Shown here in pieces: positions 5,001-50,435 of a DNA stretch of 64,000 nucleotides; the first letter of the stretch is position 1, and every line of letters begins with the position of its first letter. The DNA comes from an uncultured Chloroflexia bacterium (lineage in GTDB: Bacteria > Chloroflexota > Anaerolineae > JAAYZQ01). The stretch lies in contig CAWANP010000015.1 of assembly GCA_963783445.1 (NCBI GenBank), forward strand, positions 216,666-280,665, read 5' to 3'. Below the pieces are notes generated by a model that saw only the letters and a list, made by a program, of their open reading frames with translations, was not told the origin of the DNA and did not search any database. The position numbers and the translations under genes were made by a program.

Positions 5001-5060
5001 CGAAGGCGTTCCGTCTCAACGGACTGAAGCCAGGACCTGCCGGCTCCAGATAACTCACTG

Positions 5061-6928: not shown

Positions 6929-6941
6929 GCTGGATACGGCC

Positions 6942-7439: not shown

Positions 7440-7454
7440 TACCGCCCCGTTTCC

Positions 7455-17570: not shown

Positions 17571-17991
17571 TGCATGCCTCCTGTGAAACTGGTCTTCGGC
17601 TATGATACCATAGAATCAGCCGCTGTCCAAGAGACCCCGATGGTGCTACCCAGGCCAGACCTTCGAGGTGTCCCAGAAGAACCAGCCGGCACTGCCCCTG
17701 CAGGGGGTTCGGGATTCACAGAAACCCGCGCAGGGCGGAGGAAAGACTTGGAGGGCTTGGATACTCGCGCTTGTGCCTGGCATCACGAAATGGCGGATTG
17801 TCCAGCTTTCCTGTCTGTGCTATAATCAGCGCGCAGCAGGACTCCTGGCGGAGCTGGCGGCTGCGGTTCAGGAGCAGGCAATGGGCGAACAGCTTGAGGT
17901 GGTCGCAGAGTAGTTGATGGAGGCGTCATGATCTCGAGAGGACTGAGCCCTCGTCCCGAGATGGACGGCAGGGGCTGCCGGGAAGGGTAAC

Positions 17992-21816: not shown

Positions 21817-22888
21817 TCATAGCAAGCCACGACTCGGTCGGCAGCAAAAGAGATCTTGGGCAATCCCCACCAGTTCAGCATCGCCGACGATCCGGTGGCG
21901 CCATGCGCTATCGACGTATGCCCACAGAACCACGCCACCGCCAAACTGCTTCTGGACCATCAGATGTTTGGCCTGGGCACAGCCTTTCTCGGGCTTGACG
22001 TCAACACTCACAGAGTAGAAGGCCCAACTGCTGTCGATCAGCAGCTTGCTCTGACCGTAGGCAAGGCGGAAGAAGCCAGCCTCACCCCAGCCTGTCCCCC
22101 AGCTGTTTTTGCCGATCCAGCATCCTGCGCTGTCATCGTAGCCGACGATGCAGATGCAGTGGTAGCCACGCAGAGTCGCTGCGTTGCTCACACGGTACAC
22201 GCCACTCTTGTACGCAGAAAAGTCGTTGTAGACTGCCATTCCTGCGACACCGGCCCGATAGACGAAATGGCCGTTTTGCGGGCCTCCATCGTGCTGTGGG
22301 CCTGAAAGCCCGTGATTTTTGTCAGGCGTGATTGCCAGTTGCTGCACCGGTCACTACACGGCTGATTTCGTGGCTGATAGGGAAAGCATGCATCGTCTGT
22401 CACACCAGTACTTTTGGCGTAGGCCAGACCCGACGTCAATCCCCAGCCGCTGCAGCTTCCACCTCCGCAGAACTGCATAAAGGCCTCTGACAGATCCACG
22501 GCCTTCTGGTGATTGTTGGCTTTGATACGGATGTTGGCCTCAATCGTGGCGCACGTCCCAAAGGAGACGCAGGACCCACAGCCTCCCTGGTTCTTGACCG
22601 GGGTCACATAGTTCTTTCCGTTCACATTCCGCCAGTCCCGTGCCGCAGGGGCAGCTACGGGCGCCCGCACCGTAAAGGCGCGCTTCTCTTCCTCGGCAAG
22701 CGCCTTGGTCTCGGCCGCCATCGCCCTCAGCTCTGCCCGGGTGGCGAATCCACGCCCAGGTACTTGTCCTTCTCCTCGATGGGAAGCGCCGTGAGTGTGG
22801 TTTCGCCTGGGACCCAGCCCAGGTTCTCCTCTTCGACTGCCGCTTTTATCTCAGGCACCGATAGGATCTTTTCTACCTTCTTGGCCAT
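21817..22888 (-). CDS. Papain-family (C1) cysteine peptidase with a C-terminal extension domain; interrupted by about two frameshifts
   Basis: DWR..VTPVKNQGGCGSCVSF (Cys-box), GYHCICIVGYD (His-box) and NSWGTGWGEAGFFRL (Asn/Trp box) are spread over the ORFs 22727..22960, 22188..22721 and 21817..22347. No signal peptide. Confidence 0.7.
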
Positions 22889-33272: not shown

Positions 33273-35603
33273 GTGAAACGAGGGATGGCCAATCCCGCAG
33301 GCCGGACCAGCAGCGCAAGTTGGGCGCCGATGCTACTCGTGGCTGCGGCCTTAGTCCTGGTGCTGGTGCCTCTGCTTCTGGCTACGAGCCAGGTTCTCTT
33401 GTTGCGGTGGCTGGCGATCATGGTGCTTACCTGGTGGCTGCCGGGGGCACTCCTGGTGGTTGCCTGGCGGCTCCCGGAGCTTGATTTGCCGACCGGCATC
33501 ATCGTGGCATTCGGGCTCGGTCTGTGCTGGATGATCCTGCTGGGGCTTCTGGTACACTGGCTGCCGGGGCCTGTGGATCTCTGGCTTCTGATTGCTGCCT
33601 ATGAGGTGGGTGTGATTGGCCTGCTGGCAGCCTTGCTCTGGCGACGGCCGCAACGGTTGGTGCCAGGAGTGCCAACCTCCTGGGGGTGGTTGGTTTTGCT
33701 GCTTGTCCTGCTTTGTTTGCTGCGGCTGCCAGGGCTGGGCTACCACGACTTGCATATCGATGAGGTGGAGGTGCTGCGTCGCGCCAGGTGGGCCATTGAG
33801 GGGGTCGACGAGATACTGGCCGTGCACACCAAAGGCCCTGGCGAAATCGCGGTCGCCATGGTCACCTACCGTGCCTTGGGCACGGCCACCGAAGCTACCG
33901 CGCGACTGCCCTTCGCGTTGATGAGCATCGGCAGTGTGCTGGCCACCGCCCTGCTGGGTCGCCGGCTCTTTTCGGCAACCACCGGCTTCTGGGGTGGGGC
34001 ACTGCTTGCTTTCAATGGCTTTGCCCTGGGCCTGTCGCGCATCGTTCAGTACCAGCCAGCCGTGCTCTTGCTCTCCGTATTGGCTGTCCTGTCTGCATGC
34101 GAATTCGCCCAGCGCAGCGAGGGACGCTGGCTGGCCCTGGCGGCTGCTTTCAGCGCCTGCGGCGTTGTCATGCATTACGAGTTTGCGCTCCTCGCACCGG
34201 TCCTGGCGGTACTGACCTGGGCTGGCTGGAAGCGCGCGCTTGATAGGGGAGCGCTTTTGCGCCTGTCGCTATGGGCCACGATCTTGGGGGCGGTCCTCAT
34301 AGCCGCGGCCTACGTCCCCGCCATCTTGAGTCCACACCTGGCCAAGACGCAGAGACAGCTCGGGGTGCGGATGGGCGGTTTTGGCACATTCAATATCCCG
34401 ACACTCGTTGAGCTGGGCACGTTGTACAATTCCAGCTACTTCTTCGGAGGGCTGATCCTTCTGGGGGCAGCCGGAATCGTCCTGGGCTGGCGTAGGGCGC
34501 GGCGGCAGACCCTATTGCTCGTGTTGTGGTTCCTGCCATTCTTGATCTTGCTTCTCTTCGTGATGCGCCTGCCTGGTACCCACTTTTACGTGCTCATGCC
34601 AAGCTGGTCGCTGTTGGCAGCGCTGCCCCTGGCAGCCGTGACAGAGTCAAGGGCGCCGTGGCCTCTTGTGCGCGGGGGTCTGCACGGCCTGGCCGTCGTC
34701 TGGCTGGCCTTGTCAGCTGGCTACCTGTACTTGGCCTTCTTCCGGCAGGACCCCGAATACATTGTCAACTACCAGGAGGAGCGGCTGCCCGTCTACGTGG
34801 CGCCATACGGCGAGGGCGTGCCGCGTGAACCCCGTTACGGCTTTCCCATCCGGGAAGGGTGGAAGACGCTGGGCTTGCTGGCCAAGTGGGGGTGCCTGCA
34901 GGGCACCTATGGCAGCAACGAGGCGTCGCGCATCCACCAGCGCTGGTACCTCAAAGACTTGGCCTACGTTGGCCCGGAGCGATCGCCCGACTATGTCTTT
35001 GTGGCCAAGCATGTGCAAGTCCTCCACCACAAGTACGACGAGAGCAGGCTTCAAGGCTACCGGCAGGTAGGCGAGGTGCGGGTGCGGGATGAGCCGCGCA
35101 TCGAGATCTGGGCGCGCCAGCCTCTGCCGGCATCCTATGTGACCTATGGGCTGGAGGAGTATGCCGGTGTTTTCGACAGCGTGCAACCCAGCCTCGAGGA
35201 CTGGCCCGGGATGCCGGTTCAGGTACGCGGGGACAGGTTCGCTGAGGAGTTGACCCTGGAGGCTGCAGGCCTGGCCCAGACGATCTACAGGCGAGGGGAT
35301 GTCCTCCACCTGCTGCTGGTGTGGCGTCCCGAAATGCCTCTGGCCAAGGACTATAAGCTCTTTGTCCACGTAGCGGACGAAAGCGAGCGTCCGCTGACGC
35401 AGTGGGACGGTTTCCCTTGCTTGAACCTGAGTCGCACGAGTCAGTGGGCGGCTGGTGCATCGATCGCTGACCACGTGGTAATGTCCATCCCCGACGATCT
35501 GCCGCCAGGCCATTACTCACTGTTGGTGGGCCTATACGACGAGGCTAGTGGGGAGCGGCTGGGCGGCCAGTTTGTCAAGATCGCAACGATTACGATACGT
35601 TGA
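33273..35603 (+). CDS. GT39/ArnT-like (PMT_2) integral membrane glycosyltransferase with a C-terminal soluble domain
   Basis: 776 aa, at least 12 TM helices in the N-terminal ~480 aa with DE-containing loops, followed by a ~280-aa hydrophilic C-terminal domain. Confidence 0.6.
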   Translation: MKRGMANPAGRTSSASWAPMLLVAAALVLVLVPLLLATSQVLLLRWLAIMVLTWWLPGALLVVAWRLPELDLPTGIIVAFGLGLCWMILLGLLVHWLPGPVDLWLLIAAYEVGVIGLLAALLWRRPQRLVPGVPTSWGWLVLLLVLLCLLRLPGLGYHDLHIDEVEVLRRARWAIEGVDEILAVHTKGPGEIAVAMVTYRALGTATEATARLPFALMSIGSVLATALLGRRLFSATTGFWGGALLAFNGFALGLSRIVQYQPAVLLLSVLAVLSACEFAQRSEGRWLALAAAFSACGVVMHYEFALLAPVLAVLTWAGWKRALDRGALLRLSLWATILGAVLIAAAYVPAILSPHLAKTQRQLGVRMGGFGTFNIPTLVELGTLYNSSYFFGGLILLGAAGIVLGWRRARRQTLLLVLWFLPFLILLLFVMRLPGTHFYVLMPSWSLLAALPLAAVTESRAPWPLVRGGLHGLAVVWLALSAGYLYLAFFRQDPEYIVNYQEERLPVYVAPYGEGVPREPRYGFPIREGWKTLGLLAKWGCLQGTYGSNEASRIHQRWYLKDLAYVGPERSPDYVFVAKHVQVLHHKYDESRLQGYRQVGEVRVRDEPRIEIWARQPLPASYVTYGLEEYAGVFDSVQPSLEDWPGMPVQVRGDRFAEELTLEAAGLAQTIYRRGDVLHLLLVWRPEMPLAKDYKLFVHVADESERPLTQWDGFPCLNLSRTSQWAAGASIADHVVMSIPDDLPPGHYSLLVGLYDEASGERLGGQFVKIATITIR

Positions 35604-35843: not shown

Positions 35844-36269
35844 ATGTCTGACCAACCACAGTACGAGCAACAGCGCGACGAGAAGGACGAGAAGCAGGAA
35901 AAGGGAAACGGGGACAGTTGGGACGAAAAGTGGCGCCGTGATCCAGTTGACGCCGCCATGTGGGCCCTCATCCTGATCTGGGTCGGGGTGGTGCTGCTTG
36001 GCGCCAACCTGGGCTTCTTTCGGGGATTGCCCCTGGAATCCTGGTCCATTGGCTTCCTTGGAGCTGGCGTCATTGTACTCTTGACGGTACTCTTTCGCTT
36101 GCTGGTGCCGGCTTACCGGAAACCTGTGGGTGGCACCGTCATTCTGGGGGTGGTCTTTATCGGGATCGGCCTGGGCGAGCTGGTCGGATGGATCATCATC
36201 GGGCCCTTGGTTCTGATTGGCATCGGTGTGGGCATCATTCTGACCGGCATCTTTCGGAAACGCGAGTAG
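35844..36269 (+). CDS. Small membrane protein with an acidic N-terminus
   Basis: 141 aa with three hydrophobic helices. Confidence 0.5.
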   Translation: MSDQPQYEQQRDEKDEKQEKGNGDSWDEKWRRDPVDAAMWALILIWVGVVLLGANLGFFRGLPLESWSIGFLGAGVIVLLTVLFRLLVPAYRKPVGGTVILGVVFIGIGLGELVGWIIIGPLVLIGIGVGIILTGIFRKRE

Positions 36270-36388
36270 ACCCGACAGGTTGCGCCCGTACCGGTTCGTG
36301 GCAGTTGCTTTGGCACCATTGAGGCGCGCCCGGGCGCCTGGTGCCTGGCAGAGCTAAAAAGGTTCATCAGCGCCGTCTCGGCATATGA

Positions 36389-36448
36389 GCCAGTCTGAAC
36401 CTGGCGGCAAAATGCGTTGGACTGTGGTCCAACGCGAGCCAGACTGGC
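36389..36448 (+). promoter_or_regulatory. Nested hairpin element upstream of the B12-radical SAM gene
   Basis: An outer stem gccagtctg (36389-36397) pairs with cagactggc (36440-36448). An inner hairpin ttggac-tgtg-gtccaa lies at 36418-36433. The element shares the word CCAGTCTGAACC(C/T)GG with the operator pair at 26466-26510. Confidence 0.3.
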
Positions 36449-36541
36449 TGGAAACTCGCTTGTTTCTCGTGCCGTGGGGCGCGTTTACAGTAAAGCGTCT
36501 GGAATTGAGTCGCTTTCCCTCCTGCAGAAAGGAATTGTATT

Positions 36542-37952
36542 TTGCGCGTTCTGCTGCTCGAACCTCCCAAGGTTCCCTGGGAGATGATGGGCGATGTGGT
36601 GGCCCCGCCGTTGGGACTGGCCCAACTGGCCGGTTGTCTGGAAGAGGCCGGCATCCCAGTCGAGGTCCTGGATGCCAACGCCCTGGAGATTGGTTGGGAC
36701 AGGCTGGGATCCTCTATTGCTGGGGCCGAGCCGGACCTGATCGGCATAACGGTCTATACCCCCTTTGTGCCTGAAGTAACCCGCGCCGTGCGCATCGCCC
36801 GCCGGGCAGCGCCTCAGGCAACTATCGCCTTGGGCGGCCCCCACGTCACCTTCACCGTCGAAGAGACGCTGCAGACCATGCCCGAGGTGGACGTTGTGGC
36901 GCGGGGCGAGGGCGACCGGATCATCGTCGATCTGGCTCGTGCGGTGGAGGGCGGCGAAGGGCTCGACCGGGTGCCGGGTATCAGCTACCGGTGCGACGAT
37001 CAAATCGTGGAGACTCCTGCACCGCCAGCCCCGGACCTCGCCAGCCTGCCGCTGCCCGCCTTCCACCTGATGCCCATGGAACGCTACTATTTTCAGGTAC
37101 TTGGCGGTCCCTTTGCTACCGTCGTCGCCAGTCGTGGCTGTCCGTTCCAGTGTACTTTTTGCTCCGAGTGGCCTTTCTGGGGCGGCGGCTGGCGTCCCTA
37201 TGATCCCGAGCAGATCGTTGAGCAGCTAGATATCTTGGTGAACCGCTATGGGCGCACGAACATCTGGTTTGGCGACGATTGCTTCAATGTGGACGGCGAT
37301 CACGTGGCCGCCATCTGCGAGGGGATCCTGAGCCGGGGGATCAAAGCCAGCTGGTACTACCAGGGGCGCGCCGACCTGCTGGTCAAGTACAAGGACCTGC
37401 TGCCGCTGATGCGCCGGGCTGGCAACCGCATGGCCCAGATCGGCATCGAGGCCTCCAACGACGAGCAGCGGGATGAGCTGAACAAGAAATTGGGCACCGA
37501 GACGGTCGCAGAGGCGGTAAGCCTGCTGCGGCAGCATGGCATCGTCTGCCAGGGTATGTTCATCGTCGGCCTGCCCAGCGATACCCCGCGCACGATCGAG
37601 CAAAAGGTGCGGTTGGCTACCCGTCTCGACGTCGACTTTCCCATCTTTGTCATATACACCCTCTTTCCCGGTGTCCGCCGACTATGAGCGGGCCGTCGCC
37701 GAGGGCCGGCTGGAACTCCCGGCGGACTATGGCCGCCACGACATGGCCCACGTGCTGGTCGCCCCCGACAAGATGGCCCCCCGCCAGGTCTATGCCTATA
37801 CCCGGTGGGCAGTGACGAGCATCTACTTGCACCCAGTGCGGCTTGCGCGGGCCCTGTTCTCGCCCAACGACTGGCAGCGGCATAGTTCCGGATCGATGCT
37901 CCTCTACCTGGGTAAGCAGTTCGCCCGCAATCTCGTACCCAGGTTTGGGTGA
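36542..37952 (+). CDS. Cobalamin (B12)-binding domain radical SAM enzyme (class B rSAM, methyltransferase-like); frameshift near 37670
   Basis: N-terminal B12-binding fold, CxxxCxxC SRGCPFQCTFCSEW, and the C-terminus continuing in the ORF 37536..37952. Confidence 0.8.
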
Positions 37953-38401
37953 CCAGTTCGACCGGCGGCGAGACTGTCGAGGTCGACGTGGTCAGCATCG
38001 GTGTGGAGATATTCGTCGTATGCCCTTCATCCCCCGGGGCAACTGTAGTTGACTTTGCCCTCGTCGGTTTCCTGCGCCTGCGCTCGCCAAAGATCTCCGA
38101 CTGAGGCGATTCGGGGTCGATGAGAGCCAAGGCCATCGGAGGCTCAACCGGTTCGTGGAGTTCGGCGGCGGATGGCATGCAGGCCGGATCCGCTGATTGC
38201 TCCATCGTCCTGGTGTGACCTGTCCACTCATAGGCGCCCGCACGATGGCGCAGTGGGGACAATCTTGGGGCCCCATCACCTGGCCTTTTAGTGATCAGTG
38301 GTTGCAGCGGCTCAATGCAGCCAGTGAGGCGACAGTGCTCAGGTATCCCTACGATTTCATACCGGTTCAATGAGCCATACATAGAAGGCAGGAGGTTGGG
38401 C

Positions 38402-39579
38402 GTGAGCTTTCCGCAGACTGCAGATGTAGTCGTCATCGGCGGCGGGATCATTGGGACAAGCATCGCCTTTCACCTGGCATGCATGGGCGTGGGCAAGGTC
38501 GTGGTGCTGGAGCGAGAAGTATCTGGCGGCCGGCGCTACCGGCCTGAGCTGCGGGCTGGTACGGCAACACGCAGACAATCCGTTGGACGCCCAGATGGTT
38601 TCCAAGAGCATGGAGACGTACCGGTACTTTGACAGTCTCGTGGGTGGGGACTGCGGTTGGGTGAGCACGGGCTTTCTCTATTTGACCTCTCCAAGAAACC
38701 TTGAGCCGATGAAGGCCAATATCGCCATGCTGCAGGACATGGGGATCCGTACCCGGCTGGTTGATTCCGGCTGAGATCCGCGAGCTGGCCCCCTACCTGA
38801 GTGTTGACGAGCCCATGTACGCCGCCTACGAGCCGGATTCAGGCTACGCCGATCCCTACTCGGCGACGATGGGCTTTGCTGAGGGGGCGCGCCGCCATGG
38901 AGCCCAGATCTTCCAGGGTGTAGAAGCAACGGGCATCGTCACCGGCAACGGTCGCGTGACAGGCGTGCAGACGCCCCAAGGTGAAATCTCTGCTCCTGTC
39001 GTCATTGATGCGGCCGGACCGTGGGGCGGGTTGGTGGCGGCCATGGGCGGCGTGCCCACCGATCTGGAGATCGAGCACCATCAGGTCGGTACGCTCGAGG
39101 TCCCGCCGGAGGTAACCTGGCCGCACCTGACGGTGATAGACACGTTACGCTACACCTACTTTCGGCCCGAAACCGGCCGGATGACGCTGGTTGGCGCCTC
39201 GTTCGCCAACCGCATCATCGGCGCCGAACAACTGGAAAGCTACAGCCAGAACCTGACACCGGATACGGAGTATGAGTTGCTGGAGCGGTTCTGTGCCCGC
39301 TTCCCTGGCATGGAGGTGGCAGGGGTACGCAAGGGCCACGCTGGCGTCTATATCAATACGCAGGATCTGCATGGATTGTTGGGGCCAGCGCCCGGCGTGG
39401 AGGGCTTTTATCTGGCCACGGGTCTCAGCGGCCAAGGCTTCAAGATGGCGCCTGTGGTTGGCCAGGCCATGGCCGAGCTGATCCTGAACGGCCGCGCGGA
39501 CGTAGTGGACATAAGACCCCTGCGTGTGACCCGCTTTGAGGAAAGCGAACCGATCAGGGGGCTGCATCCCTACGGGTAG
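38402..39579 (+). CDS. FAD-dependent oxidoreductase (DAO family, sarcosine/glycine oxidase-like), with about two frameshifts
   Basis: GTG start with an AGGAGG RBS; dinucleotide motif VVVIGGGIIGTSIAFHLA; the fold continues across the ORFs 38291..38632, 38451..38774 and 38761..39579. Confidence 0.7.
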
Positions 39580-39599
39580 CTCCAACAGACACTCATGGA

Positions 39600-40793
39600 T
39601 TGAGAATGACAGGCAGACATTATGATGTGCTGATCGTTGGTGGTGGGATTATGGGCTGTTCCATCGCCTACCATCTCGTGGCGCAAGATGACCGGCTCAG
39701 AATTGTCGTCGTCGAGATGGATCCATCCTACTCCTACGCGTCAACCACCCTGTCCGTGGCCAATGTAAGGGTTCAGTTTGCCATCAAGGAGAATGTCCAA
39801 ATCTCTCTGTATGCGCTGGATTTTCTTCAGCGGTTTGGCGACGAGATGGCTGTGGGTGACCAGAATCCGGATGTGGGATTCCGCCACCAGGGCAACCTCT
39901 TCCTGGTAGATAAGGCAGAGCGCGCGCAGGCTGAGCAGAGACTGGCGCTGCAGAGGAGCTTGGGTTGCCAAGTTGAGTGGCTGTCACCAGACGAGATCAC
40001 GCAGCGCTACCCCCTCTACGATGCCGAAAAGTACGCTGGGGGTACCTTTGGGTGCCGGGATGGCACGATAGATGCCCATGCGGTTCTCATGGCCTATCGG
40101 GCCAAGGCTAGATCTCTGGGCGCCGAGTTCCTTCACGACGAGGTGGTGGAGATTCTGCGCGACGGAAGCAGGGTCACAGGAGTCCGGCTGGCCTCAGGGG
40201 GCGCGCTGGTGGCCAGGTCTGTGGTAAACTGTAGTGGGGCCTGGGCGGCCCAGGTCGCCCAGACGGCAGGCGTGAGAATTCCGGTCAAGCCGCAAAAGTG
40301 CCAGGTCTTTGTGTTGGACACTCGGGTCAAGCCGGACCACAGCCTGCCGCTGACGATCCTCCCATCGGGCCTCTGCATTCTTGATGAGACCGGAGGCCTG
40401 ATTCTTTGCGTGCGGTCCATCGAAGCATCAGACCAGATCGATTTCACGTTGGAGAGAAGGAGGTTCACCGATGGGCTATGGGAAGAGCTGGTCGCATTCG
40501 TTCCAGCCTTTGACCGCCTCAGGCTCATCAGCGGTTGGGTAGGGCTCTTTGCCATGAGCACCCTGGACAGCAACGCGTTTTTGGGCGAGTGGCCCGAGTT
40601 GCAGGGGTTCTACCTGGCCAACGGCTTCTCGGGGCACGGATTCCAACAGAGTCATGCAGTGGGACGCTACCTGGCTGAGCAGATCACGGGCTGCACACCG
40701 ACGCTGGATCTATCGATCTTTGCTCCACGGCGCATTCTGGAGAATCGGCCGATCCACGAGGCGATGGCGGGCGGCTCGTCGGGACACGATTGA
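39600..40793 (+). CDS. FAD-dependent oxidoreductase (DAO family), intact
   Basis: VLIVGGGIMGCSIAYHL Rossmann motif; 397 aa. Confidence 0.8.
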   Translation: MRMTGRHYDVLIVGGGIMGCSIAYHLVAQDDRLRIVVVEMDPSYSYASTTLSVANVRVQFAIKENVQISLYALDFLQRFGDEMAVGDQNPDVGFRHQGNLFLVDKAERAQAEQRLALQRSLGCQVEWLSPDEITQRYPLYDAEKYAGGTFGCRDGTIDAHAVLMAYRAKARSLGAEFLHDEVVEILRDGSRVTGVRLASGGALVARSVVNCSGAWAAQVAQTAGVRIPVKPQKCQVFVLDTRVKPDHSLPLTILPSGLCILDETGGLILCVRSIEASDQIDFTLERRRFTDGLWEELVAFVPAFDRLRLISGWVGLFAMSTLDSNAFLGEWPELQGFYLANGFSGHGFQQSHAVGRYLAEQITGCTPTLDLSIFAPRRILENRPIHEAMAGGSSGHD

Positions 40794-40857
40794 GATAGAG
40801 AGGATTTGCAGAGTATGAACTGTCTATCCTCTGGCAACTCTCGCCCGCAAAGGGCTG

Positions 40858-42001
40858 CTAGTCAATTTGGAGGTCAATCAGGATTGGCCCTGAGGACGCA
40901 TGCGCCCGGGCAAGGGCTGATTCAGCCTCTTGTCGGTTTCTGGCCTGCAGTCCAGGAATACCGTAGGCTCTCGCCAACCTGACAAGGTCTGGTCCCATCA
41001 GCCCATTGTCGGGGAACCCCTTCCTGGTAGATGGAGCGGTTGCCGAGGATTCGGCAGCCGTGTGGCCTCCATTCACAACCACGATCCGGATGGCAAGGTC
41101 TTCCTGGACGACAGTTGCCAGCTCCTGCAAAGTGGCCTGAAAACCATCGTTGCCAGCCAGGACCCACACCTGCTCCTGGGCCAGGGCCATCTGGGCACCG
41201 ATGGCGGCCGGAAGCGCAAAGCCTCTTGTCGCCAGGTTCCCCGGGCCGAGCAGGCATCGTGGACCGCGAGTCTCAAGATCGAGTATGTCGCCCATAGGAT
41301 CGGCCACCAAGACAATTTCTCCCCGCGTGGCGTCGCAGATCTGTTGTGCTACAGCCCCAAGCATGCCATCGCCGCTCTCCACCTGTGCAGCAGGCGGCCT
41401 CGCCCATCGATCTCCTGCCCTCTCTGTCGGGTGAGCAAGATTGCTCCACAGGATCGTATTCCGAGAAACGGGTCTGTTCGGGATCAGCGGACTCACACTC
41501 GTCTTTCTGTACGTCATTGGCAACCACAACCAGTACGGGGCCTGGCCGGCCGGTCCGAGCGATGTGGAATGCCTCTTTCATGACCTGAGGGATCTCTTGC
41601 GCGGCCGCTACAAGGTAGTTGTGCTTGGTAACGGGTTCGGTGAGCGACACGATATCGACTTCCTGAAAGGCATCGGTGCCCAGCACTCTTAGGGGGGACT
41701 GGCCGCACAGCGCCACGATGGGGGCACCGGCCACATAGGCAGTTGCCAAACCGGTGGCAAGGTTCGTCGCCCCGGGGCCAGAGGTCGTCAGGCAGACGCC
41801 AACGCTTCCTGTCGCCCGGGCATAGCCGTCGGCCGCGTGGACCGCTCCCTGTTCGTGGCGCATCAGCACGTGATGGATGGGATAGTCCGCCAGCGAGTGA
41901 TACAGTGGGATGACCGAACCACCAGGGATGCCAAAGACTGTGGCAACTCTTTCGTGGAGGAGGCTCTCGCACACGAGTTGAGCCCCGGTTCTTCTCTGCA
42001 A
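40858..42001 (-). CDS. Short thiamine-diphosphate enzyme (Pyr + PP domains only; sulfopyruvate/phosphonopyruvate decarboxylase-like), with one frameshift
   Basis: N-terminal TPP Pyr domain ([11 protein letters not shown]...HEQGA...GPGATN). The C-terminal PP domain has GNDGFQ...VVNGG. The middle domain is absent. Confidence 0.6.
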
Positions 42002-42016
42002 AGTTGTTCCTGTTCC

Positions 42017-42805
42017 TTATTTGCCCAACACCATGCCCGTGGGGTCGATCTCCTGGAGTAGCGTGCGCTCCTCAAGAGTTGGCGGCTCTGACTCTGGCAC
42101 CTGGCCCTTGACCAGGATCTCAAACTGGCTGTTGGCCTGGACGTCGCTCAGGCTTACGCCCGGGTGCAGGGCGAGCAGCTCAAGTCTCTTGCTCTCCTCC
42201 TCAAAACCATAAACTCCCAGTTGGGTGATGACCCGGTAGGGCCCGCAGTCCGCTGGCAAGCCAGCCCGCTCCCGGCTGCCGGGCCCATCCAGATAGCCCG
42301 GCGTCGTCAGAAAGTCCAGATCGTTGACAAAGGTCCGCGTGCTCTGATTGCGCATGACGTAAATGGTCCGCCAGCAGAAGGAGCCCAGATCGTTCGCCCC
42401 TCCGGAACCTGGCAATCGCACCTTGGGCCGGTCCCAATCGCCGATGACGGTGGTATTGATGTTGCCATAGGCGTCCATGGCCGCGGCGCCCAGAAAGCCA
42501 TAATCAATAAAGCCTGCCTGCGCAGCCGACATGATGTCGTGCATCGTCGTGGCCACCAATGCCCTGTGAAAGGTGCGCGAATCCCCTACCGAAACAGGCA
42601 GCGATGGCAATTGGGGACCCATACCGCCTGCCTCAAAGACCATCATGATGTTGGGCGCATGGAGGCGTTGGGCAAGCATGGTGGCGGTCATGGGCAACCC
42701 TGTGCCGACAAAGACGGCCCGATTATCCTCCAGCATTCGGGCGGCCACACAGCACAGCAGTTCTGCAAGGGTATAGCCTCCACCTGACCCGTTGTTTCGT
42801 ACCAT
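42017..42805 (-). CDS. CoA-transferase family I, subunit B
   Basis: 262 aa matching 3-oxoacid/glutaconate CoA-transferase beta subunits (ESGxG-type region MMVFEAGG). Confidence 0.8.
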   Translation of the reverse strand: MVRNNGSGGGYTLAELLCCVAARMLEDNRAVFVGTGLPMTATMLAQRLHAPNIMMVFEAGGMGPQLPSLPVSVGDSRTFHRALVATTMHDIMSAAQAGFIDYGFLGAAAMDAYGNINTTVIGDWDRPKVRLPGSGGANDLGSFCWRTIYVMRNQSTRTFVNDLDFLTTPGYLDGPGSRERAGLPADCGPYRVITQLGVYGFEEESKRLELLALHPGVSLSDVQANSQFEILVKGQVPESEPPTLEERTLLQEIDPTGMVLGK

Positions 42806-42821
42806 TGTCTGTTTCCTCCCC

Positions 42822-43829
42822 CTACAGTTTTCCCTTGCCGCCTTTTTCGATGGCTGCCAGTTCCTCCAGCCGCTTCATACCGCCCACAAGATCCAGATAG
42901 CCCCCAAAGTCGGCCACGCCGTGCACGTACCTGTCCATGTACTCCTGGGCGCCCTCCGGGGTCTTGCTCAGGCTCAACCATTCGCCGATGTGCGCTTCGT
43001 CAAAGAAATAGCGGTAGGGCATCTGGCCTGGATGGCCGCCAAAGGGTACCTCGCACACGGCGTCTACCACGTAAAAGGGTACCACGGTTCGGTCTGGCTG
43101 GCGCCGGATCTCTTCCTCGTCAATGATCTCCTCGGCGGTGATGACGACGCGCCGCCCGGCCCGGGCCAGCTCCACATCTTCCATGGGGATACCGTCGATC
43201 TGGGCGTTGCCGAATCGGTCGCATCGCGGGACGTGCAAAAGGGCCACGTCAGGGTAAGCGGCCGGGATCAGAGTCACTGGTTTCTCGCTCCAGGGATCCT
43301 GGATCACGATGGCCGAGCTTTTCTCAAAGGTGTCGGTGCCGGCCAGACTGCGGACAGGGATGAAGGGGATGCCCATCATCCCTGCCAGGAAGCGCCACTG
43401 ATAGGTACCGTTGGACAGTTCCCCGATCACGCGTACGGTGCCGTTTTCTACCGCGCGCCGGCCCGAGGGCGAGAGCCCGCGCAACTCGTGTCCAAAGGCG
43501 TAGGCGCACTCAACTCTGCTGACGCAGCCGGCTCCGATCAGCACGTCAATGTCGTGTACCCCCGTCTTGCCCGCCACGGCCAGGTCCCGGCGGCCCTGGC
43601 GGATGATCTCATAGATCACGGCCATGGGAACGCGAACGTGGCCAAAGCCGCCGATGGCCACAAAGTCGCCATCGTGAACAAAGCGCTCGACGGCCTCGCG
43701 TACTGTCATCCGCTTGTCGACAAGCCCCCTGGGCTTGTGGTCGCGTACCCAGGCCCGGTGCTCATCGGGGTCGTGCCATCCTATCAGTTCCCCCTGGCCT
43801 TGCTTCAGGATCCTGATGTTGTCTGTCAT
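42822..43829 (-). CDS. CoA-transferase family I, subunit A
   Basis: 336 aa from the MTDNIRIL start; alpha-subunit fold. Confidence 0.8.
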   Translation of the reverse strand: MTDNIRILKQGQGELIGWHDPDEHRAWVRDHKPRGLVDKRMTVREAVERFVHDGDFVAIGGFGHVRVPMAVIYEIIRQGRRDLAVAGKTGVHDIDVLIGAGCVSRVECAYAFGHELRGLSPSGRRAVENGTVRVIGELSNGTYQWRFLAGMMGIPFIPVRSLAGTDTFEKSSAIVIQDPWSEKPVTLIPAAYPDVALLHVPRCDRFGNAQIDGIPMEDVELARAGRRVVITAEEIIDEEEIRRQPDRTVVPFYVVDAVCEVPFGGHPGQMPYRYFFDEAHIGEWLSLSKTPEGAQEYMDRYVHGVADFGGYLDLVGGMKRLEELAAIEKGGKGKL

Positions 43830-43919
43830 GGATGTGCCTCTTTCTCCCTCTTGCTCAAAGTAAGTGACTCTCTTCTCCCTGGCGAACCTTGCGGTGAGAC
43901 CCTGGTACAACCGCTGCGA

Positions 43920-44900
43920 TCAGTACTGGCTGGGCGACGGTGACAGATCCAGCATCTCGCGGGCCTGTGCTGCTGTAGCGATCTCCCTGTTCAGATCTTG
44001 TGCAATGCGCACCACCCGCTCTACAGCCTCGACGTTGCTTTCCAGGAGCCGGCCTCGTTTGTAGTATACATTGTCCTCCATACCCACACGTACCATCTGC
44101 GCCCCCAAGATCATGGCCAGGCTGGTCATGGGCAGTTGGAAGGGACCAACGCCTGATACCTCGACGACACACTGGGATGGCAGTTGTTCAAAAAAGTTGA
44201 TGAGGTTGCCTGGCGTTGCCCAGGGCGACATGCCGTAGCCCATGACAAACTGGATCAGATAGGGTGGCTCAACCAGCCCTTGCTCCATCAAGTCAAATAC
44301 GCTCCACAGTTGCCCAGGGTGGTAGACCTCCATCTCGGGCTTGATGTTTCGTTCTCGCATGGCTTGGGCAAATCGCTGCAGTTCCTTGTGGGTGATGGGT
44401 AGGGTTCCGCTCACCTCCTGGGCGGGTCGCGGGTGAGGCAGGGGTGCCTTTCGCTCCTTGAGCCTGAGTTTGTACATATCCGGCCCCATATTCAGTGTGG
44501 CAACCTCTGGCGCTGCATCCAGGCAGGCCACCCGGTCCTCGACGGACATGCCGAAGGAACCGCCGGTGCTATTGTTGATGATGATCTCGGGGCAGGCTTC
44601 GCGGATCAGGGCATGGACCTTGCGGTACTGCGCCACGTCGCCCGAACCGTCCCACCACTTTTCGGGGTCGCGCACGTGCAGATGCACCATTGAGGCGCCA
44701 GCTTGGTAGCAGGCGAGGGTCTGCTCCACCTGCTCCTCCGGTGTTTCGGGCAGGTTGGGGTTTGCTTCCTTGCCCTGCACGCCGCCGGTGATGGCGACAG
44801 TGATGGCCAGGGGGGGAAAGCTGGACTTTCGCACTCGCTCGAGCCATTCGTAGGGGTTGTGATAGTCCCAGACATGATTCTGCATCGTTGCATGCTCCAA
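43920..44900 (-). CDS. BKACE-family (3-keto-5-aminohexanoate cleavage enzyme-like, DUF849) beta-keto acid cleavage enzyme
   Basis: TIM-barrel BKACE signatures ITVAITGG, HLHVRD and EVSGVGPFQ. Confidence 0.8.
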   Translation of the reverse strand: MEHATMQNHVWDYHNPYEWLERVRKSSFPPLAITVAITGGVQGKEANPNLPETPEEQVEQTLACYQAGASMVHLHVRDPEKWWDGSGDVAQYRKVHALIREACPEIIINNSTGGSFGMSVEDRVACLDAAPEVATLNMGPDMYKLRLKERKAPLPHPRPAQEVSGTLPITHKELQRFAQAMRERNIKPEMEVYHPGQLWSVFDLMEQGLVEPPYLIQFVMGYGMSPWATPGNLINFFEQLPSQCVVEVSGVGPFQLPMTSLAMILGAQMVRVGMEDNVYYKRGRLLESNVEAVERVVRIAQDLNREIATAAQAREMLDLSPSPSQY

Positions 44901-45093
44901 TGCCTTCAGTTTTGCTCTGGTAGAGGTCCTCAGGATCCGGGGCGCAGACTGCCCACGGTAGTATAACGGCAGAGACCCATCTGGTCAAGACGGCCGCATC
45001 ATAGATTCGGTGCGCTCGGCAACTGGCTGTCGCGATCTACAGATCCGCGGTTGGGGCACCGTTCCCACAGAAGGCCCCACTGACCTGCCGCCA

Positions 45094-46287
45094 TCAGGCG
45101 CGACCAAAATCCAGGTACCGGACGCCATTCAGCCGGTACCACCACTTGGTCCAGCGGCCCTCGCGACCTACGCAGCGAAAGTAGGGCGGATCAAAAGCGC
45201 GTACCAGATCTCCGATCCGGTAGCGGGGCAGGACCGGGGTGGACACGATCAGGCTGCCATACTCGCCCGGCCGCATCTCGTGCAGCATCTTGACCGTCCC
45301 TGATTCGAGAAGAACCTCAAAGACATACAGGTCATAGTTGGGCACCAGAAGCTGGCGGTCGTCGAGCTGCTGGGCAAAGGCGCCCTCGGTGGCGATGTAC
45401 ATCTCGATCACGTCCACGGGGCCGTACAGGGCGCGCAAGGCCGGTTTGTATTGGGTATGGATTCCGGGCACGCTGGTGGCAGCAATGGCGCGCATGGACC
45501 AAAGATTCTTGGGCAGTACGCGGTGGTGGCGCTGGAGGTAGTGTCCGAACTCGAGGATAGAGGGGCAGACCCCGGCGCACATGGTGATGGACGCTTCCTT
45601 GGTGCGCTGGTAGACCCACTCGAAGCGACGCTGCCAGGCGCTGGGCGTGTTTCCCCCGCCCAGGGCATCGATCTCTTCCTGGGGCGGAAGGATCTCGACG
45701 GGGGTGGCCTCGGCCGCGTGCCGGACATAGATGCCGGAACTGAATCCGTAGGGTGTTTCCTGCCCAGCCACCTCCATGATTCCTACTACGGAAGGGTAGT
45801 TGAGGTTGAGACTGCAGCCCTCGATGGCATCAAGCTGGTCGGTCCGCAGTAGGTGGTTGAGCAGGCCGCGGGCGGCGGCCACGCGGATGCCCAGATCGGT
45901 CTCGGTGATGGGAATACGCTTGGGTATGCCCCGGGTGGTACCCCGGGTCATGGCCCAGGCGACCGGCGGTTCTGGCAGCAGGGCCTCAACCTGGCCGGCA
46001 ATGACCTTGTCGATCCAGGGTTTGACCTCATCATAGGTGACGATGGGGAAGGTGCTGCGGTAGGCCTCAAAGAGGCGGGGTGGATCGCCGGCCAGGTCCG
46101 GAAGTATGGACGCGCCGTACTGCTGGCCGTAGGTTGTCTTGGCATAACCTTCGAGCAGCCACGCCAGCGTCTGTGCCTGGGCCAGAGCCGGATTCTGCAG
46201 CCCCTTGTGCCACAGTTCAACAAAGAGCTGGATGAACTCGCGATACTGCTCCATTCTCCATGCGCTCCAGGTGGGGTCGATTCGCAC
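45094..46287 (-). CDS. GH3-family acyl-acid amido synthetase homolog lacking the C-terminal domain (truncated)
   Basis: GH3 N-terminal motifs (YGQQYG...FPIVTYDEV...TRGTTRGIPKRIP); it ends where the GH3 C-terminal domain normally begins. Confidence 0.55.
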   Translation of the reverse strand: MRIDPTWSAWRMEQYREFIQLFVELWHKGLQNPALAQAQTLAWLLEGYAKTTYGQQYGASILPDLAGDPPRLFEAYRSTFPIVTYDEVKPWIDKVIAGQVEALLPEPPVAWAMTRGTTRGIPKRIPITETDLGIRVAAARGLLNHLLRTDQLDAIEGCSLNLNYPSVVGIMEVAGQETPYGFSSGIYVRHAAEATPVEILPPQEEIDALGGGNTPSAWQRRFEWVYQRTKEASITMCAGVCPSILEFGHYLQRHHRVLPKNLWSMRAIAATSVPGIHTQYKPALRALYGPVDVIEMYIATEGAFAQQLDDRQLLVPNYDLYVFEVLLESGTVKMLHEMRPGEYGSLIVSTPVLPRYRIGDLVRAFDPPYFRCVGREGRWTKWWYRLNGVRYLDFGRA

Positions 46288-46559
46288 CGTGTACAGATTC
46301 TACCACATCGAGCTGGCGAGGGCAAGGTCATCGTTGAGCGCAAACCGCTGTTGGGCATGAGGGTTAGGGGTGCCAGCTCCCCAAGACCTCGGAGGCAACG
46401 AACCTGCAGTTCGTCCGAACCCTCCGAGGTCTGTCTGCAGGGTACAGACCTGTGGCGTCGCTGTCACGATAAGTGGAGGCTTGACGCCGGATCTGACCTA
46501 TGGTAGGATGCATCTAGCCACTTGCTCATCGTAGCCGATCCAAAATCTGGAGGTCCACA

Positions 46560-48232
46560 GTGTTGGGAATTGACACTTTTCTGGAAATTCTCGCCGCTTC
46601 TGGCGTACAGTACATTTTTGGTAATCCGGGCTCGACCGAACTGCCCCTCAGCGATGCCCTGGCCAGGGACTCGCGCTTTCAATACATTTTTGGCTTGCAC
46701 GAAGGGCCCCTCACTGCCATGGGCGACGGCTATGCCATGGCTTCGGGCAAACCGGGTGTGGTCTGCGTACACATTTCCTGCGGAGTGGGCAACGCCATGG
46801 GCATGCTCTACAATGCCTACAGCGCCGGTTCGCCGCTCCTGCTCGTCGCCGGCCAGCAGGACCGGCGCCTGCGTTTGGGAGAGCCGGTACTGGCCGGTGA
46901 GACCGTTGAGCGTGACGCGTCCCTGGACCAAGTGGTCGTACGAGGTGCAGCGCGTTGAGGATGTGCCGCTGGCCGTACGCCGGGCCGTACAGACGGCACT
47001 CACGCCGCCAACGGGCCCGGTCTTTCTGTCGCTGCCGGTAGATGTCCAGCTTGAGCCGCGCGCAAGGGCTTGACCTGAGCCCGCCGTACATACCCGACCG
47101 GCGGGTCCGACCGCCGTCGGATGCCCTGCGCCAGGCCGCAGAGATGCTGGCCCAGGCCCGCAACCCGGCCATCCTGGCCGGCAGCCGGGTGACGGAGGCG
47201 GGCGCTGTGCCCGAACTGGTCGCGCTGGCCGAGCAGCTCGGCGCGCCTGTGCTGGCCGAACAGCAGACTTCCCACGCGCGGCTGCCCATGCCGGCTGACC
47301 ATCCGCTCTATGCGGGCGGCCTGCCCCTATGGGGGCCGGAGGTGCACGAGACGCCTGGCGGAATTCGACATAATCCTGGTGGTTGGCATGGATCTGCTGC
47401 GCCTCTACATTCACCAGGAGCCGCCACGGCCCATGCCGGAACAGGTGCGCCTGATCCACCTGGACGCGGACCCCTGGCAGATCGGCAAGAACTATCCGGT
47501 AGAAGTGGGCCTGGTGGGCGACCCGAAGGCCGGCCTGGCGGAGCTGGCTCAGCACCTGGCAGAGCTTCTGTCAGCGGAGCAGATCCAGGCGGCTGCCGAG
47601 CGCCGTGGAGCGCACGCCGTCCGGCGCAGGGCCGAGCAAGAGGCACTGCTGGTCCGAGATCGACAGCCAGTGGGACCTGCGGCCCATGACGCCCTACGCC
47701 TTTATGGGCGCGCTGTGCCGCGTCCTGCCGCCGGATGCCGCCGTGGTGGAGGAAGCCGTTACCACGCACCAGTACCTGCTGGAGAGGCTGGGCGTGCTGA
47801 AGGATCCCAGCGGCTACATCGGCCATCGCGGCTGGGCCCTGGGCTGGGGGCTGGGTTGCGCCATGGGCGTCAAGCTGGCCTGGCCCGACCGGCCGGCCGT
47901 GGCCCTGTCCGGTGACGGGGCGGCGCATGTATGGCATTCAGGCCCTCTGGACGGCGGCCCATCACCGCATCCCGGTGCTCTTTGTGATTGCCAACAACGC
48001 CCAGTACAAGATCCTGAAGGTCAGCGGCGACGTGATGCAGTTGCCCCAGATGGTCCAAAAGAACTACCTGGCCATGGACCTGGTCGGACCGGAGATCGAT
48101 TTCGTGGGTCTGGCCCGCTCCCTGGGTGTCCGGGCACTGCGGGTGACTGGTCCGGATGAGCTGAGCGACTGTGTAGGGGATGCACTGGCGGGCAGCGAAC
48201 CGGTTCTATTGGACGTAGTGGTCGATCGCTAA
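46560..48232 (+). pseudogene. Thiamine-diphosphate enzyme (benzoylformate decarboxylase / acetolactate synthase-like), with at least five frameshifts
   Basis: The Pyr domain (GNPGSTELPL...HEGPLTAMGDGYA), a central domain and the PP domain (GWALGWGLGCAMG...SGDGAA...NNAQY) are spread over six ORFs in different frames. Confidence 0.65.
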
Positions 48233-48376: not shown

Positions 48377-50435
48377 ATGGAAGACTGGTTGCTAGCCATC
48401 GCGAGGAGGTTCGGGCTTGACCCTGAGACCTCGAGCCCACTCGATCAGGCGGCTGCCGCTTGGGGTTTCTTTGGTGTTCTCTACTCGGTACCGCTGGCGC
48501 TCGCAGGCCTCGTGTGGCTCGCTGCCGCTACGGATGTGCGCCTGATCCGTGCCGAATGGCCGACACTATTGCTCCTCTGCGCGTTCCTCTTTCTCTTCAA
48601 GAGGTTCAGGTTCTTCTTTTTCATCGAGTCGCCTGGCAGACAGCAGACCAGATTTGATAGCACATTCGAGCCCATTGTCTACTGGTCGGCAGCCCTGATA
48701 TTCGGCCCCACCGCCCTGTGGCTGCCCGTGCTTCTGGACACGCTAGACTACGCCCACAGGGTGCGCCAGGAGCCCAGGATCTTTGGACGCTGGGATATCT
48801 CTCGCAACCTGCTACACAACCTGGTCAGCATAACGCTCGCCAGCCTGATCGCGCTGGCCCTCTACGAGTACTGGGGTGGTGAGTTCCCTTTCCCGGGCCT
48901 GACAGTGACGGCCGTCCTGCCTGCTGTCCTGGCGACGCTCGTTCACATGTGCCTGCAGATACTACTCTATGCGCCCCTGCTGTTCTACATCGCAGCGGGC
49001 TGGTCACCGGCGTTTCGCCAGGATCCGGGTTGGCTGAGTACGCTTACCTGGGGTCTGGGCATCACCCTGGGGGCCGTCGGCCTGATCGAACTCTTTGCCA
49101 TTCTGGCGGCGGGTCTGTACACCGACAATGGTCTCGGTGTCTATTTCGCCTTTCTCATTGGCCTGCTACTGGTGAGCTGGCTAGCCTTTAGGCTGAGCAC
49201 GTACTTGGAGCGCAGTCAGCAACGGTCGCGCGAGCTGGAGAGATTGGAGGAGCTGGGGCGTGCCATCCTGAGAGCGCCGCCAGACGCCTCCACGCTGCCT
49301 GACCTGCTGGACGAGCACGCCGGCAGCATGTTCCTGCGAAGCCAGATCGAGATTCACCTCTATCCCAACCGGACGCTGTTGCACAGCCCTGACAACTGGC
49401 CGCCGGTCAGTGGTCCAACCTGGAAGTGGCTGCGAGCAAACCCCGAGGCGCGCTTCTATCTGCCTGAGACCAGCCTTCCCTGGGATGAACAAGTGGATCA
49501 CACCGTCGGGATGGCCCTGGCCCCGATCTTTGAAGCCGAAAGTGGGGGGGATGCTCCATCGCTGCCCATGGGTGGCATCTATTTGCGGCGAGATCACGAT
49601 CCTCTCGATGTGGCCAGCCTTCTGCCAGCCCTGCAGTCGCTGGCTGCCCAGATCGCATCCGCGTTACACAGGGCCAAAGTGTTCCGGATCGAGCAGGAAC
49701 TGGCTGTCGCCGGCCGGATCCAGGCCAGTTTCCTACCGGAAAGCTTGCCCCAGATCCCTGGCTGGCAGTTGGCAGCGGCGTTGGTACCCGCTCGGGAGAC
49801 CTCGGGCGATTTCTACGACGTCATCCCGCTGCCGGATGGCTCCTGGGGCCTACTGGTGGCCGACGTGGCCGACAAGGGCACCGGGGCTGCGCTGTATATG
49901 GCCCTGAGCCGGACGCTCGATCCGCACCTTTGCCGTAGAATACCCCCAGCAGCCGGATCTCGCCTTGGGAGCCGCCAACCGGCGCATCCTGGCCGATGCC
50001 AGCGCCGATCTCTTTGTCACGGTCTTTTACGGCGTACTGAATCCGGACTCAGGCACGCTGACCTACTGCAATGCAGGCCACAATCCACCCTTCCTCCTGG
50101 AGAATGAGGCTGGCGACCGGCCCCAGGCTCTGACCGGTACGGGGCTGCCGTTGGGGGTCCTGGAGGACGAGATCTGGGAGCCACGCTCCGTCCGGCTCGA
50201 CGAAGGGAGCGCCCTGGTGCTGTACACGGATGGAGTAACGGAGGCGCGGAATGCCCAGGACGAGCTGTTTGGCAAGGAGCGGTTGCTCGAGGTCCTGAGA
50301 GCAAGCCAGGGGACGACTGCACAGGGGATCCAGGAGGCTGTACTTGGGGCAGTGCATGAATTCGCAGCGGATTCTCCCCATTCACAGTACGATGACATCA
50401 CGCTTATGGTCCTGGTGCGGGGTGGGCCGCGATAG
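48377..50435 (+). CDS. Polytopic membrane sensor fused to a PP2C (SpoIIE) phosphatase; frameshift near 49950
   Basis: About 8 TM helices, then PP2C motifs ([29 protein letters not shown]). Confidence 0.75.

Follow-up and report, generated by a model that had tools for sequence, protein, structure and literature searches.

A BKACE and CoA-transferase cassette closed by a rare short ThDP protein lies within a conserved B12-radical SAM/GH3-like gene set in an uncultured Chloroflexia bacterium

Beta-keto acid cleavage enzymes (BKACE) convert a beta-keto acid and acetyl-CoA to acetoacetate and an acyl-CoA; acetoacetate is inhibitory, and a CoA-transferase together with a thiolase recycles the acetyl-CoA (PMC11961710). 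Described systems that combine a BKACE with an acetoacetate-activating CoA-transferase are lysine fermentation (kce with an acetoacetate:butyrate CoA-transferase), the pair of carnitine dehydrogenase and dehydrocarnitine cleavage enzyme, and the engineered CORE cycle. Here we compare with these systems a gene cluster in a 64,000-nucleotide stretch of DNA from an uncultured Chloroflexia bacterium (contig CAWANP010000015.1, positions 216,666 to 280,665; referred to as the window and numbered from its first letter), in which the genes for a BKACE and a two-subunit CoA-transferase are followed by that of a short thiamine diphosphate (ThDP) protein, sTPP. An earlier note on this DNA had read nine enzyme genes of this region as one pathway. 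Comparison of gene neighbourhoods with those of relatives showed that the nine genes are not co-conserved, the outcome that the note itself had named as contrary to its proposal. We conclude that the interval from 36.4 to 48.2 kb is probably a mosaic of four evolutionarily separate units and not a single pathway: a conserved set of a small membrane protein, a B12-binding radical SAM enzyme (rSAM) and a GH3-like enzyme (module A); the BKACE cassette (module B); two FAD-dependent oxidoreductases of the DAO family (module C); and a second ThDP enzyme (TPP2) with a neighbouring phosphatase (module D).

The nearest relatives were a Microflora Danica Chloroflexia metagenome-assembled genome (MAG; L007), an ENA contig (L048) and a JGI contig (L049). 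Identity to the window was ~90% for L007 and for L048 and was 98% between the two; the rSAM protein of L049 was 87% identical to that of the window. A metagenome scan with the corrected rSAM (see below) yielded 80 loci of 47-88% identity (L061-L140), whose neighbours were identified by tBLASTn and clustering of open reading frames (ORFs); the L049 contig recurs in this set as L061. Domains were called by Pfam and NCBIfam scans, which recovered all nine domain assignments made previously. The G+C content of the window is ~61% and shadow ORFs are abundant. Its genes had been described as two divergent blocks; instead, the rSAM-DAO block on the plus strand converges on the BKACE block on the minus strand, and divergence is confined to the GH3-like gene (-) and TPP2 (+), in whose gap sigma-70-like promoter matches occur in both directions.

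Module A consists of TM141 (35844..36269, +), the rSAM gene (36542..37952, +) and, separated from these by modules C and B, the GH3-like gene (45094..46254, -). In loci with an rSAM at least 65% identical to that of the window, a TM141-like gene was located directly upstream in 36/36 testable loci and a GH3-like gene was convergent downstream in 21/21. At lower identity (47-64%), the corresponding fractions were 14/30 and 15/25. The distance from the rSAM stop to the GH3 stop was 7-31 bp in 21 loci; in 41 of 43 it was below 700 bp, and the maximum of 7871 bp was found in the cassette-bearing L049 contig. BKACE, CoA-transferase (CoAT), sTPP, DAO, TPP2 and PMT_2 genes were not found beside the 80 rSAM loci, the exceptions being L061, which is the L049 contig, and L104, a single distant locus with a CoAT pair. 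The partners of rSAM are hence TM141 and GH3 and not the BKACE, CoAT, TPP or DAO genes that a single pathway would join to it, and because the rSAM-GH3 adjacency is conserved without cassette genes, GH3 belongs with rSAM and not with BKACE. These data show that TM141, rSAM and the convergent GH3-like gene are a real conserved gene set.

Further apparent associations were rejected. A PMT_2 glycosyltransferase gene (33273-35603) had no homologue beside any of the 80 rSAM loci; a PMT_2 gene near a CoAT pair in L051 had no detectable relation to that of the window; and the association of CoAT with rSAM and GH3 in L104, a single case with an M50 peptidase between the genes, was treated as chance.

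TM141 encodes a 141-aa small membrane protein with a weak match to Pfam LiaF-TM (E 0.0025 in the window, 3e-5 in the L108 homologue). The rSAM protein, 469 aa in length once an inserted G at 37673 is removed, has an N-terminal B12-binding domain (PF02310, 77 bits) and a radical SAM core (PF04055, 75 bits) with the CxxxCxxC motif CPFQCTFC at residue 200, as in class-B radical SAM enzymes. It shares these features with BchE, HpnR, HpnJ and the lipid-associated TIGR04072 family, of which BchE is nearest, but it scored below the cutoff of every named class-B equivalog in NCBIfam (BchE 261 vs 481 bits, the best; HpnR 162 vs 650; HpnJ 147 vs 578; TIGR04072 123 vs 360) and, unlike BchE, HpnR and HpnJ, is not found in a photosynthesis or hopanoid context.

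The GH3-like protein (386 aa; PF03321, 70 bits, E 2e-19) is a putative adenylating enzyme. It carries TRGTT at residue 103, YIATEG at 286 and YRIGD at 345, which we take to be the three nucleotide-binding motifs of the GH3 family. It shares these motifs and the large PF03321 N-terminal domain with the GH3 acyl-acid amido synthetases. GH3 enzymes adenylate a carboxylate and form an amide, and their active site lies between two domains (PMC12493201). Whereas a C-terminal domain completes the active site in the amido synthetases, the window protein stops 37 residues past YRIGD and is without this smaller domain. The gene had been called truncated; the median length of its relatives, however, is 393 aa (43 loci), so that the protein is not cut short by decay. 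Similarity to OlsH, the lyso-ornithine lipid synthetase, was negligible (NF052613, 25 bits vs a cutoff of 620), and a literature search on the pairing of a GH3-like protein with a radical SAM enzyme found nothing relevant. As a hypothesis only, module A would combine ATP-dependent carboxylate activation or amide formation with a cobalamin-dependent radical methylation or rearrangement, both acting on one membrane-associated or small-molecule compound. A second GH3-like paralogue (~48% identical, ~390 aa) commonly follows the first (L064, L068, L069, L077, L079, L081, L097, L112 and L131) and is absent from the window; further downstream of the paralogues, a LiaF-TM/toast-rack membrane protein is encoded in L064, L069, L079, L081 and L097.

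A structured hairpin in the 5' leader of rSAM had been pointed out. The inverted repeat (36388..36451, +) is real, and the 272-nt leader folds with a minimum free energy of -64.4 kcal/mol (z = -2.83). Rfam returned no match at gathering score for the leader, the single weak match to a miRNA family (E 0.81) being noise, and the leader could not be aligned with that of L049 despite the 87% identity of the rSAM proteins. We therefore rejected a riboswitch; the hairpin is probably not a conserved regulatory RNA.

Module B opens with the gene of the putative Zn-dependent BKACE (43920..44885, -; 321 aa), continues with those of a GctA-like CoA-transferase alpha subunit (CoAT-A; 42822..43829, -; 335 aa) and a GctB-like beta subunit (CoAT-B; 42017..42805, -; 262 aa), both PF01144, and ends with sTPP (40858..42001, -). 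This gene order is identical in the window, L007, L048, L049 and L050. The first three genes were adjacent in these four relatives and in L020, and within ~4 kb of one another in L015, L021 and L022, which supports the idea of a BKACE together with a family-I CoA-transferase as the hallmark of beta-keto-acid cleavage routes. Database matches of BKACE and CoAT-A on contigs of equal size (5172, 5473, 4651, 3517, 9262 and 11265 bp) indirectly indicate further adjacent pairs. For CoAT-A, at least 120 database homologues were found, and all 120 among the matches listed were at least 70% identical. BKACE homologues of 75-82% identity also occurred in other operons, most commonly in the order 3HCDH, ADP-forming acyl-CoA synthetase (ACS) alpha, ACS beta, BKACE; another had an omega-aminotransferase gene downstream.

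The L049 contig links the two arrangements. It has a gene for a 3HCDH-family dehydrogenase upstream of BKACE and, between the two (L049 2593-2697), a 35-aa remnant of ACS beta (63% identical to residues 178-212). Because L049 keeps both the 3HCDH gene and this remnant, its sequence suggests that the cassette descends from the common 3HCDH-ACS-BKACE operon, with a CoA-transferase replacing the synthetase. The 3HCDH gene has since been lost in the lineage of the window. Judging from the gene orders, the cassette and further cargo entered the gap between the convergent rSAM and GH3 genes in the ancestor shared by the window, L007/L048 and L049; the insertion is confined to this small clade. In L053/L054 (11968-19721), a set resembling a diversity-generating retroelement (reverse transcriptase, bAvd and two NACHT/FGE-sulfatase-domain proteins) lies beside a BKACE fragment and a CoAT pair.

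In comparison with the described systems, module B shares a canonical BKACE (Zn ligands, catalytic Glu and Tyr) adjoining a two-subunit family-I CoA-transferase. The BKACE matched PF05853 (DUF849) over profile positions 1-274 of 274 with 281 bits (cutoff 24.8); its best PDB match was Kce (2Y7D, E 6e-51), with VHLHV, EMEVYH and GMEDN aligned to IHLHI, EVEVYE and GFEDN, so that the HLH (HxH), EVY (E-x-Y) and ED motifs are all conserved. The Zn-ligand and catalytic-residue roles, other than that of the Tyr, are those reportedly assigned by Bellinzoni et al. 2011. The role of the conserved Tyr is that given in the flavophos preprint. Unlike in Kce, Glu14 is not conserved in the window protein. This residue presumably contacts the substrate amino group. 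Against too close an identification with a described route, the BKACE scored below all equivalog cutoffs in NCBIfam (Kce 241 vs 382 bits, 3-oxoadipate 183 vs 350, 3,5-dioxohexanoate 183 vs 430). The carnitine route is resembled in the 3HCDH-family dehydrogenase upstream of BKACE in the sister lineage L049.

The CoA-transferase sets the cassette apart from the described BKACE systems, which have a transferase of the AtoAD/ScoAB type, whereas that of the window is of the GctAB type. Its two subunits are encoded by adjacent genes and gave 1POI_A (E 8e-40) and 1POI_B (E 1e-47) as best PDB matches; scores for the 3-oxoacid CoA-transferases (ScoAB/PcaIJ, AtoDA) remained far below cutoff (TIGR02428/TIGR02429: 24 vs 244 and 35 vs 129 bits). 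Subunit sizes and a conserved beta Glu are shared with GctAB (1POI) and with the next relatives, AibAB (5MZW) and IpdAB (6CO6). The Glu of VFEAGG in CoAT-B aligns with that of IVESGL in 1POI_B, which we take to be the catalytic residue that forms the CoA thioester. The window pair differs from GctAB in being without a hydroxyglutarate-pathway context. Other members of the GctAB subgroup include a decarboxylase and a hydrolase that opens a ring, and the transferase activity of the window pair is a prediction from its sequence.

While the gene order of module B was observed, its chemistry is drawn from knowledge of the families. By analogy, the BKACE would convert a beta-keto acid and acetyl-CoA to acetoacetate and an acyl-CoA shorter by two carbons, and the GctAB-like enzyme would place CoA on acetoacetate or on the incoming acid, removing the inhibitory product; the activated product would feed a thiolase, with acetyl-CoA regenerated. 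In L049, the 3HCDH-family enzyme would convert a beta-hydroxy acid to this keto acid. sTPP would probably be an accessory, ThDP-dependent enzyme with a 2-oxo or 2-hydroxy product as its substrate. Near the cassette, no gene for a thiolase, an ammonia-lyase or a transporter was found.

A second difference from the described BKACE systems is sTPP itself, a protein derived from acetohydroxyacid synthase (AHAS) that closes the operon. It is 380 aa long once an inserted T at 41416 is removed and has a TPP_N and a TPP_C domain. Its N-terminal Pyr domain is 65-70% identical to that of Anaerolineae IlvB, the AHAS catalytic subunit, and has the catalytic Glu (RHEQG at residue 48); its PP domain is recognisable; and its best NCBIfam, PDB and Foldseek matches were all of the AHAS type. 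An AlphaFold model built from nine sequences was of poor quality (pLDDT 59) and served solely to confirm that the nearest fold is that of AHAS. A likeness to sulfo- or phosphonopyruvate decarboxylases had been suggested, but neither Ppd nor ComDE was among the best matches, and the window has no PEP-mutase motif. The protein differs from IlvB in that it is without the central TPP_M domain (~150 residues) and the GQNQMW segment, has an altered GDG...NN motif, lies in catabolic and not in ilv operons and belongs to a very small family; as an AHAS large subunit it falls short, its fragments scoring 252 and 81 bits vs the TIGR00118 cutoff of 538. Similar short forms are rare: the matches from 5.8 billion proteins included only ~10, and 1.84 billion representatives gave some 10-13 clusters at the 50% identity level.

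Members of this family occurred in three arrangements with BKACE: BKACE-CoATA-CoATB-sTPP, as in the window; BKACE-Aminotran_4-PanB-like-sTPP; and M20-Aminotran_3-BKACE-PanB-like-sTPP, the BKACE of the latter two being only 28% identical to that of the window. We infer from this that the link between BKACE and the ThDP protein is real and recurrent. In an unrelated genome (L025 10001-12851), a BKACE 39% identical to that of the window is followed by a full-length three-domain ThDP enzyme.

Some features of the family speak against such a working partnership. One member (L059) lies beside 2-oxoacid:ferredoxin oxidoreductase genes and has no BKACE neighbour. The ThDP/Mg motif is GNDG...NG in sTPP and GDDG...N[RKQ] in most family members, vs the standard GDG-x(24-27)-NN; given this degenerate motif, the missing GQNQMW segment and a dN/dS of 0.31, sTPP may bind ThDP poorly or be non-catalytic. 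It could even be inert, a relic of an ilvB duplication that plays no part in the cassette, as would fit the deletion of the central domain and of GQNQMW, the replacement of the Mg-binding Asp of GDG in the clade of the window, the low confidence of the AlphaFold model and the dN/dS value. A relic, however, would hardly show the same deletion boundaries in members that are only 52-74% identical and all keep open reading frames, nor ~100 invariant columns spread over both domains of nine short forms; the recurrence beside BKACE in three architectures and a dN/dS well below 1 likewise argue for a retained function. We consider the relic unlikely, and an accessory role of sTPP in the cassette remains the preferred interpretation.

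The position of GH3 suggests another alternative, namely that in this clade GH3 was recruited into a new operon, GH3-BKACE-CoAT-sTPP, where it would activate a carboxylate substrate, and that modules A and B have fused. GH3 is the first gene of the minus-strand series GH3, BKACE, CoAT-A, CoAT-B, sTPP; it lies on the same strand as BKACE and 208 bp upstream of it in the window, L007 and L048, it precedes 3HCDH-BKACE in L049, and the distant locus L104 has its CoA-transferase pair on the GH3 strand. Yet the window GH3 is 75-85% identical to orthologues without a cassette, with no divergence that would suggest a new role; the intervening peptidase separates the genes in L104; and insertion into the convergent gap is a simple explanation for the position. 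Moreover, a sigma-70-like match (TTGACC-17-TATACT, 10/12 to consensus; 44960..44988, -) lies between GH3 and BKACE and is compatible with a promoter of the cassette's own. It is a consensus match only, and read-through co-transcription of GH3 and BKACE may occur in this lineage, a point against a strict separation of modules A and B. Recruitment nevertheless seems to us quite improbable, and we retain the assignment of GH3 to module A.

Four of the nine enzyme genes are broken in the window; real breaks would make the region a graveyard of decaying genes. Ten frameshifts lie between 36 and 50 kb, every one a +1 insertion and none a deletion: one in rSAM (located against the intact 469-aa L049 orthologue), two in the first DAO gene (DAO1; near 38515 and 38763, deduced from frame changes alone, as the fetched loci hold no orthologue), one in sTPP, five in TPP2 (46911, 47056, 47353, 47649 and 47926) and one in the phosphatase gene SpoIIE (C at 49918). 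Uninterrupted orthologues exist for TPP2 (a 571-codon frame in L007), sTPP (379 aa in L048, 378 aa in L049), rSAM (in L049) and SpoIIE (686 aa in L048). After deletion of its five insertions, TPP2 had no in-frame stop and a dN/dS of 0.107 vs L007; values for the unbroken cassette genes were 0.06 (BKACE), 0.07 (CoAT-A) and 0.03 (CoAT-B), and 0.31 for sTPP vs L048. The nearest relatives are Flye-style contigs, the Microflora Danica MAG among them. The long-read catalogue of that project is Nanopore-only, assembled with Flye and polished by one round of Medaka (PMC12313526).

Comparison of L048 with L007 is instructive in this respect. Over 1.3 kb of the GH3 region (L048 8560-9860) they differ by 123 mismatches and 10 gaps, vs 19 mismatches and no gaps in the adjacent 7.7 kb; L048 has its own cluster of 1-bp indels inside GH3, so that near-identical assemblies break different genes. 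Either the consensus is poor at this place or the allele is a recombined one. Because intact orthologues exist, the dN/dS of TPP2 is low after correction and the assemblies are of the Nanopore type, the apparent truncations of rSAM, DAO1, sTPP and TPP2 are most probably consensus errors of the assembly and not decay.

Two points tell against this attribution to error. The inserted bases lie outside homopolymers, which is atypical for Nanopore data, and the frameshifts are unevenly spread, with five in TPP2 and none in a 5-kb kinase gene. Because the insertions are not in homopolymers, the view that rSAM, DAO1, sTPP, TPP2 and SpoIIE are recent pseudogenes stays alive, and the concentration of insertions in particular genes, the independent reduction of DAO1 to a remnant in a sister species and the relaxed constraint on sTPP would fit it. 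It is difficult to reconcile with a TPP2 that, despite five insertions, is stop-free and under constraint once these are removed, with ten insertions and zero deletions, with close assemblies (98% identical overall, 99.75% in the flanks) that break different genes at implausible ratios of indels to substitutions, and with a source that is likely a Nanopore-only assembly. We regard recent decay as distinctly unlikely and retain assembly error as the explanation. Further split or fragmentary genes are an HtrA-like protease (6047-7454, -), the C-terminal half of a sulfatase (16140-17615, -), a MalT-like AAA_16/TPR regulator in two frames (17947-20006, +) and a papain-family fragment (21817-22350, -), and the 4-kb stretch at 20-24 kb has few long ORFs; the indel problem, or gene decay, thus spans the whole window. 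The kinase gene (9958-14925, +) is uninterrupted over 5 kb and encodes a 1655-aa sensor histidine kinase with a Reg_prop beta-propeller, Y_Y_Y, three GAF domains, HisKA_3 and HATPase_c.

Module C comprises DAO1 (~38315..39579, +), encoding a sarcosine/glycine-oxidase-like FAD-dependent oxidoreductase, and DAO2 (39600..40793, +), which is intact and encodes an FAD-dependent oxidoreductase of 397 aa. In DAO1, the last frame covers Pfam DAO profile positions 120-353 and the FAD-binding N-terminus (DVVVIGGG) lies in another frame. DAO2 matched PF01266 over its full length (212 bits) and had no NCBIfam equivalog, the best being soxB with 99 bits vs a cutoff of 529; it was absent from L007, L048, L049 and the rSAM loci. 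Synteny of L007 and L048 with the window extends from SpoIIE through sTPP and ends at the end of sTPP. In place of the DAO genes these relatives have a caspase-family peptidase, a 360-aa protein and a two-component pair, followed by the 3' end of rSAM, and of DAO1 they keep only a 187-bp remnant (window 38773-38959, 82% identical); L049 has an aspartic protease in this place. Because the sister species keeps only the remnant and has other genes in its place, both DAO genes appear to be dispensable, strain-specific cargo.

In module D, TPP2 (46560..48232, +; 555 aa without its insertions) encodes a ThDP enzyme resembling benzoylformate decarboxylase, in which the three domains and the GDGAA...NN motif are all present; the corrected protein scored below the benzoylformate decarboxylase cutoff (NF005485, 395 vs 493 bits), and its gene was found next to none of the rSAM/GH3 loci from outside the genus. 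The membrane SpoIIE/PP2C phosphatase gene that follows (48377..50435, +; 686 aa without its inserted C) lies outside the interval of the earlier note. A second SpoIIE/PP2C phosphatase (3195-5015, -) is ~40% identical to it over the catalytic domain; this second protein has GAF domains and a STAS-domain protein encoded beside it (5061-5549), and that at 48377-50435 has a polytopic membrane N-terminus.

A single pathway of all nine genes (quaternary-amine or amino-acid catabolism, or a small natural product), in which a DAO enzyme makes a keto acid, rSAM methylates it, BKACE and CoAT cleave it and the ThDP enzymes decarboxylate intermediates, could draw on the tight packing in the window, on the proximity of rSAM, GH3 and the cassette in L048 and L049 too and on the ability in principle of a DAO-type oxidase to yield keto acids from amino acids, but it is highly improbable in view of the loss of the DAO genes with the rest kept in a sister species, of rSAM and GH3 adjacent in ~40 other loci without BKACE, CoAT, TPP or DAO, of BKACE at 75-82% identity in other operons, of a TPP2 conserved beside neither module outside the genus and of the failure to find a transporter, PEP mutase or thiolase nearby. 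A phosphonate pathway was rejected, since no PEP-mutase motif (EDKxxxxxNS) occurs in any frame of the window and sTPP is AHAS-like. Quaternary-amine catabolism, for its part, was supported by no nearby gene and was rejected as well: the sole hint is an MttB-family gene 40 kb away and not linked to the cluster. That gene (983-2506, -) encodes an intact methyltransferase homologue (PF06253, 322 bits) and is the only methylamine or quaternary-amine hint in the window.

Taken together, gene packing in a single noisy long-read MAG had suggested both a pathway and truncated enzymes, and comparison with relatives dissolves the two. The cassette is an ordinary catabolic set, unusual in its ThDP accessory, that has been inserted within the conserved module of rSAM and the GH3-like gene. 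Beyond this we offer a joint reading that is tentative and, as a whole, somewhat doubtful: that the trio of TM141, rSAM and GH3 represents a widespread, undescribed pathway in sediment and soil Chloroflexota, and that sTPP is a new class of ThDP protein working with BKACE. The trio loci are metagenomic and without taxonomy, so that their counts do not give taxonomic breadth. On the same joint reading, the trio could, for example, act in the synthesis and C-methylation of an envelope lipid or of an N-acyl amino compound, the space between the convergent rSAM and GH3 genes may be an integration hotspot for variable cargo, and sTPP could process a 2-oxo/2-hydroxy acyl product or supply a beta-keto acid. 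What remains of use is a clean, conserved cassette of BKACE and a GctAB-type CoA-transferase; a B12-radical SAM enzyme and a GH3-like protein whose pairing is strongly conserved; and a very rare AHAS derivative beside BKACE genes, which is a target for enzymology in a family that is used in synthetic carbon-fixation designs.

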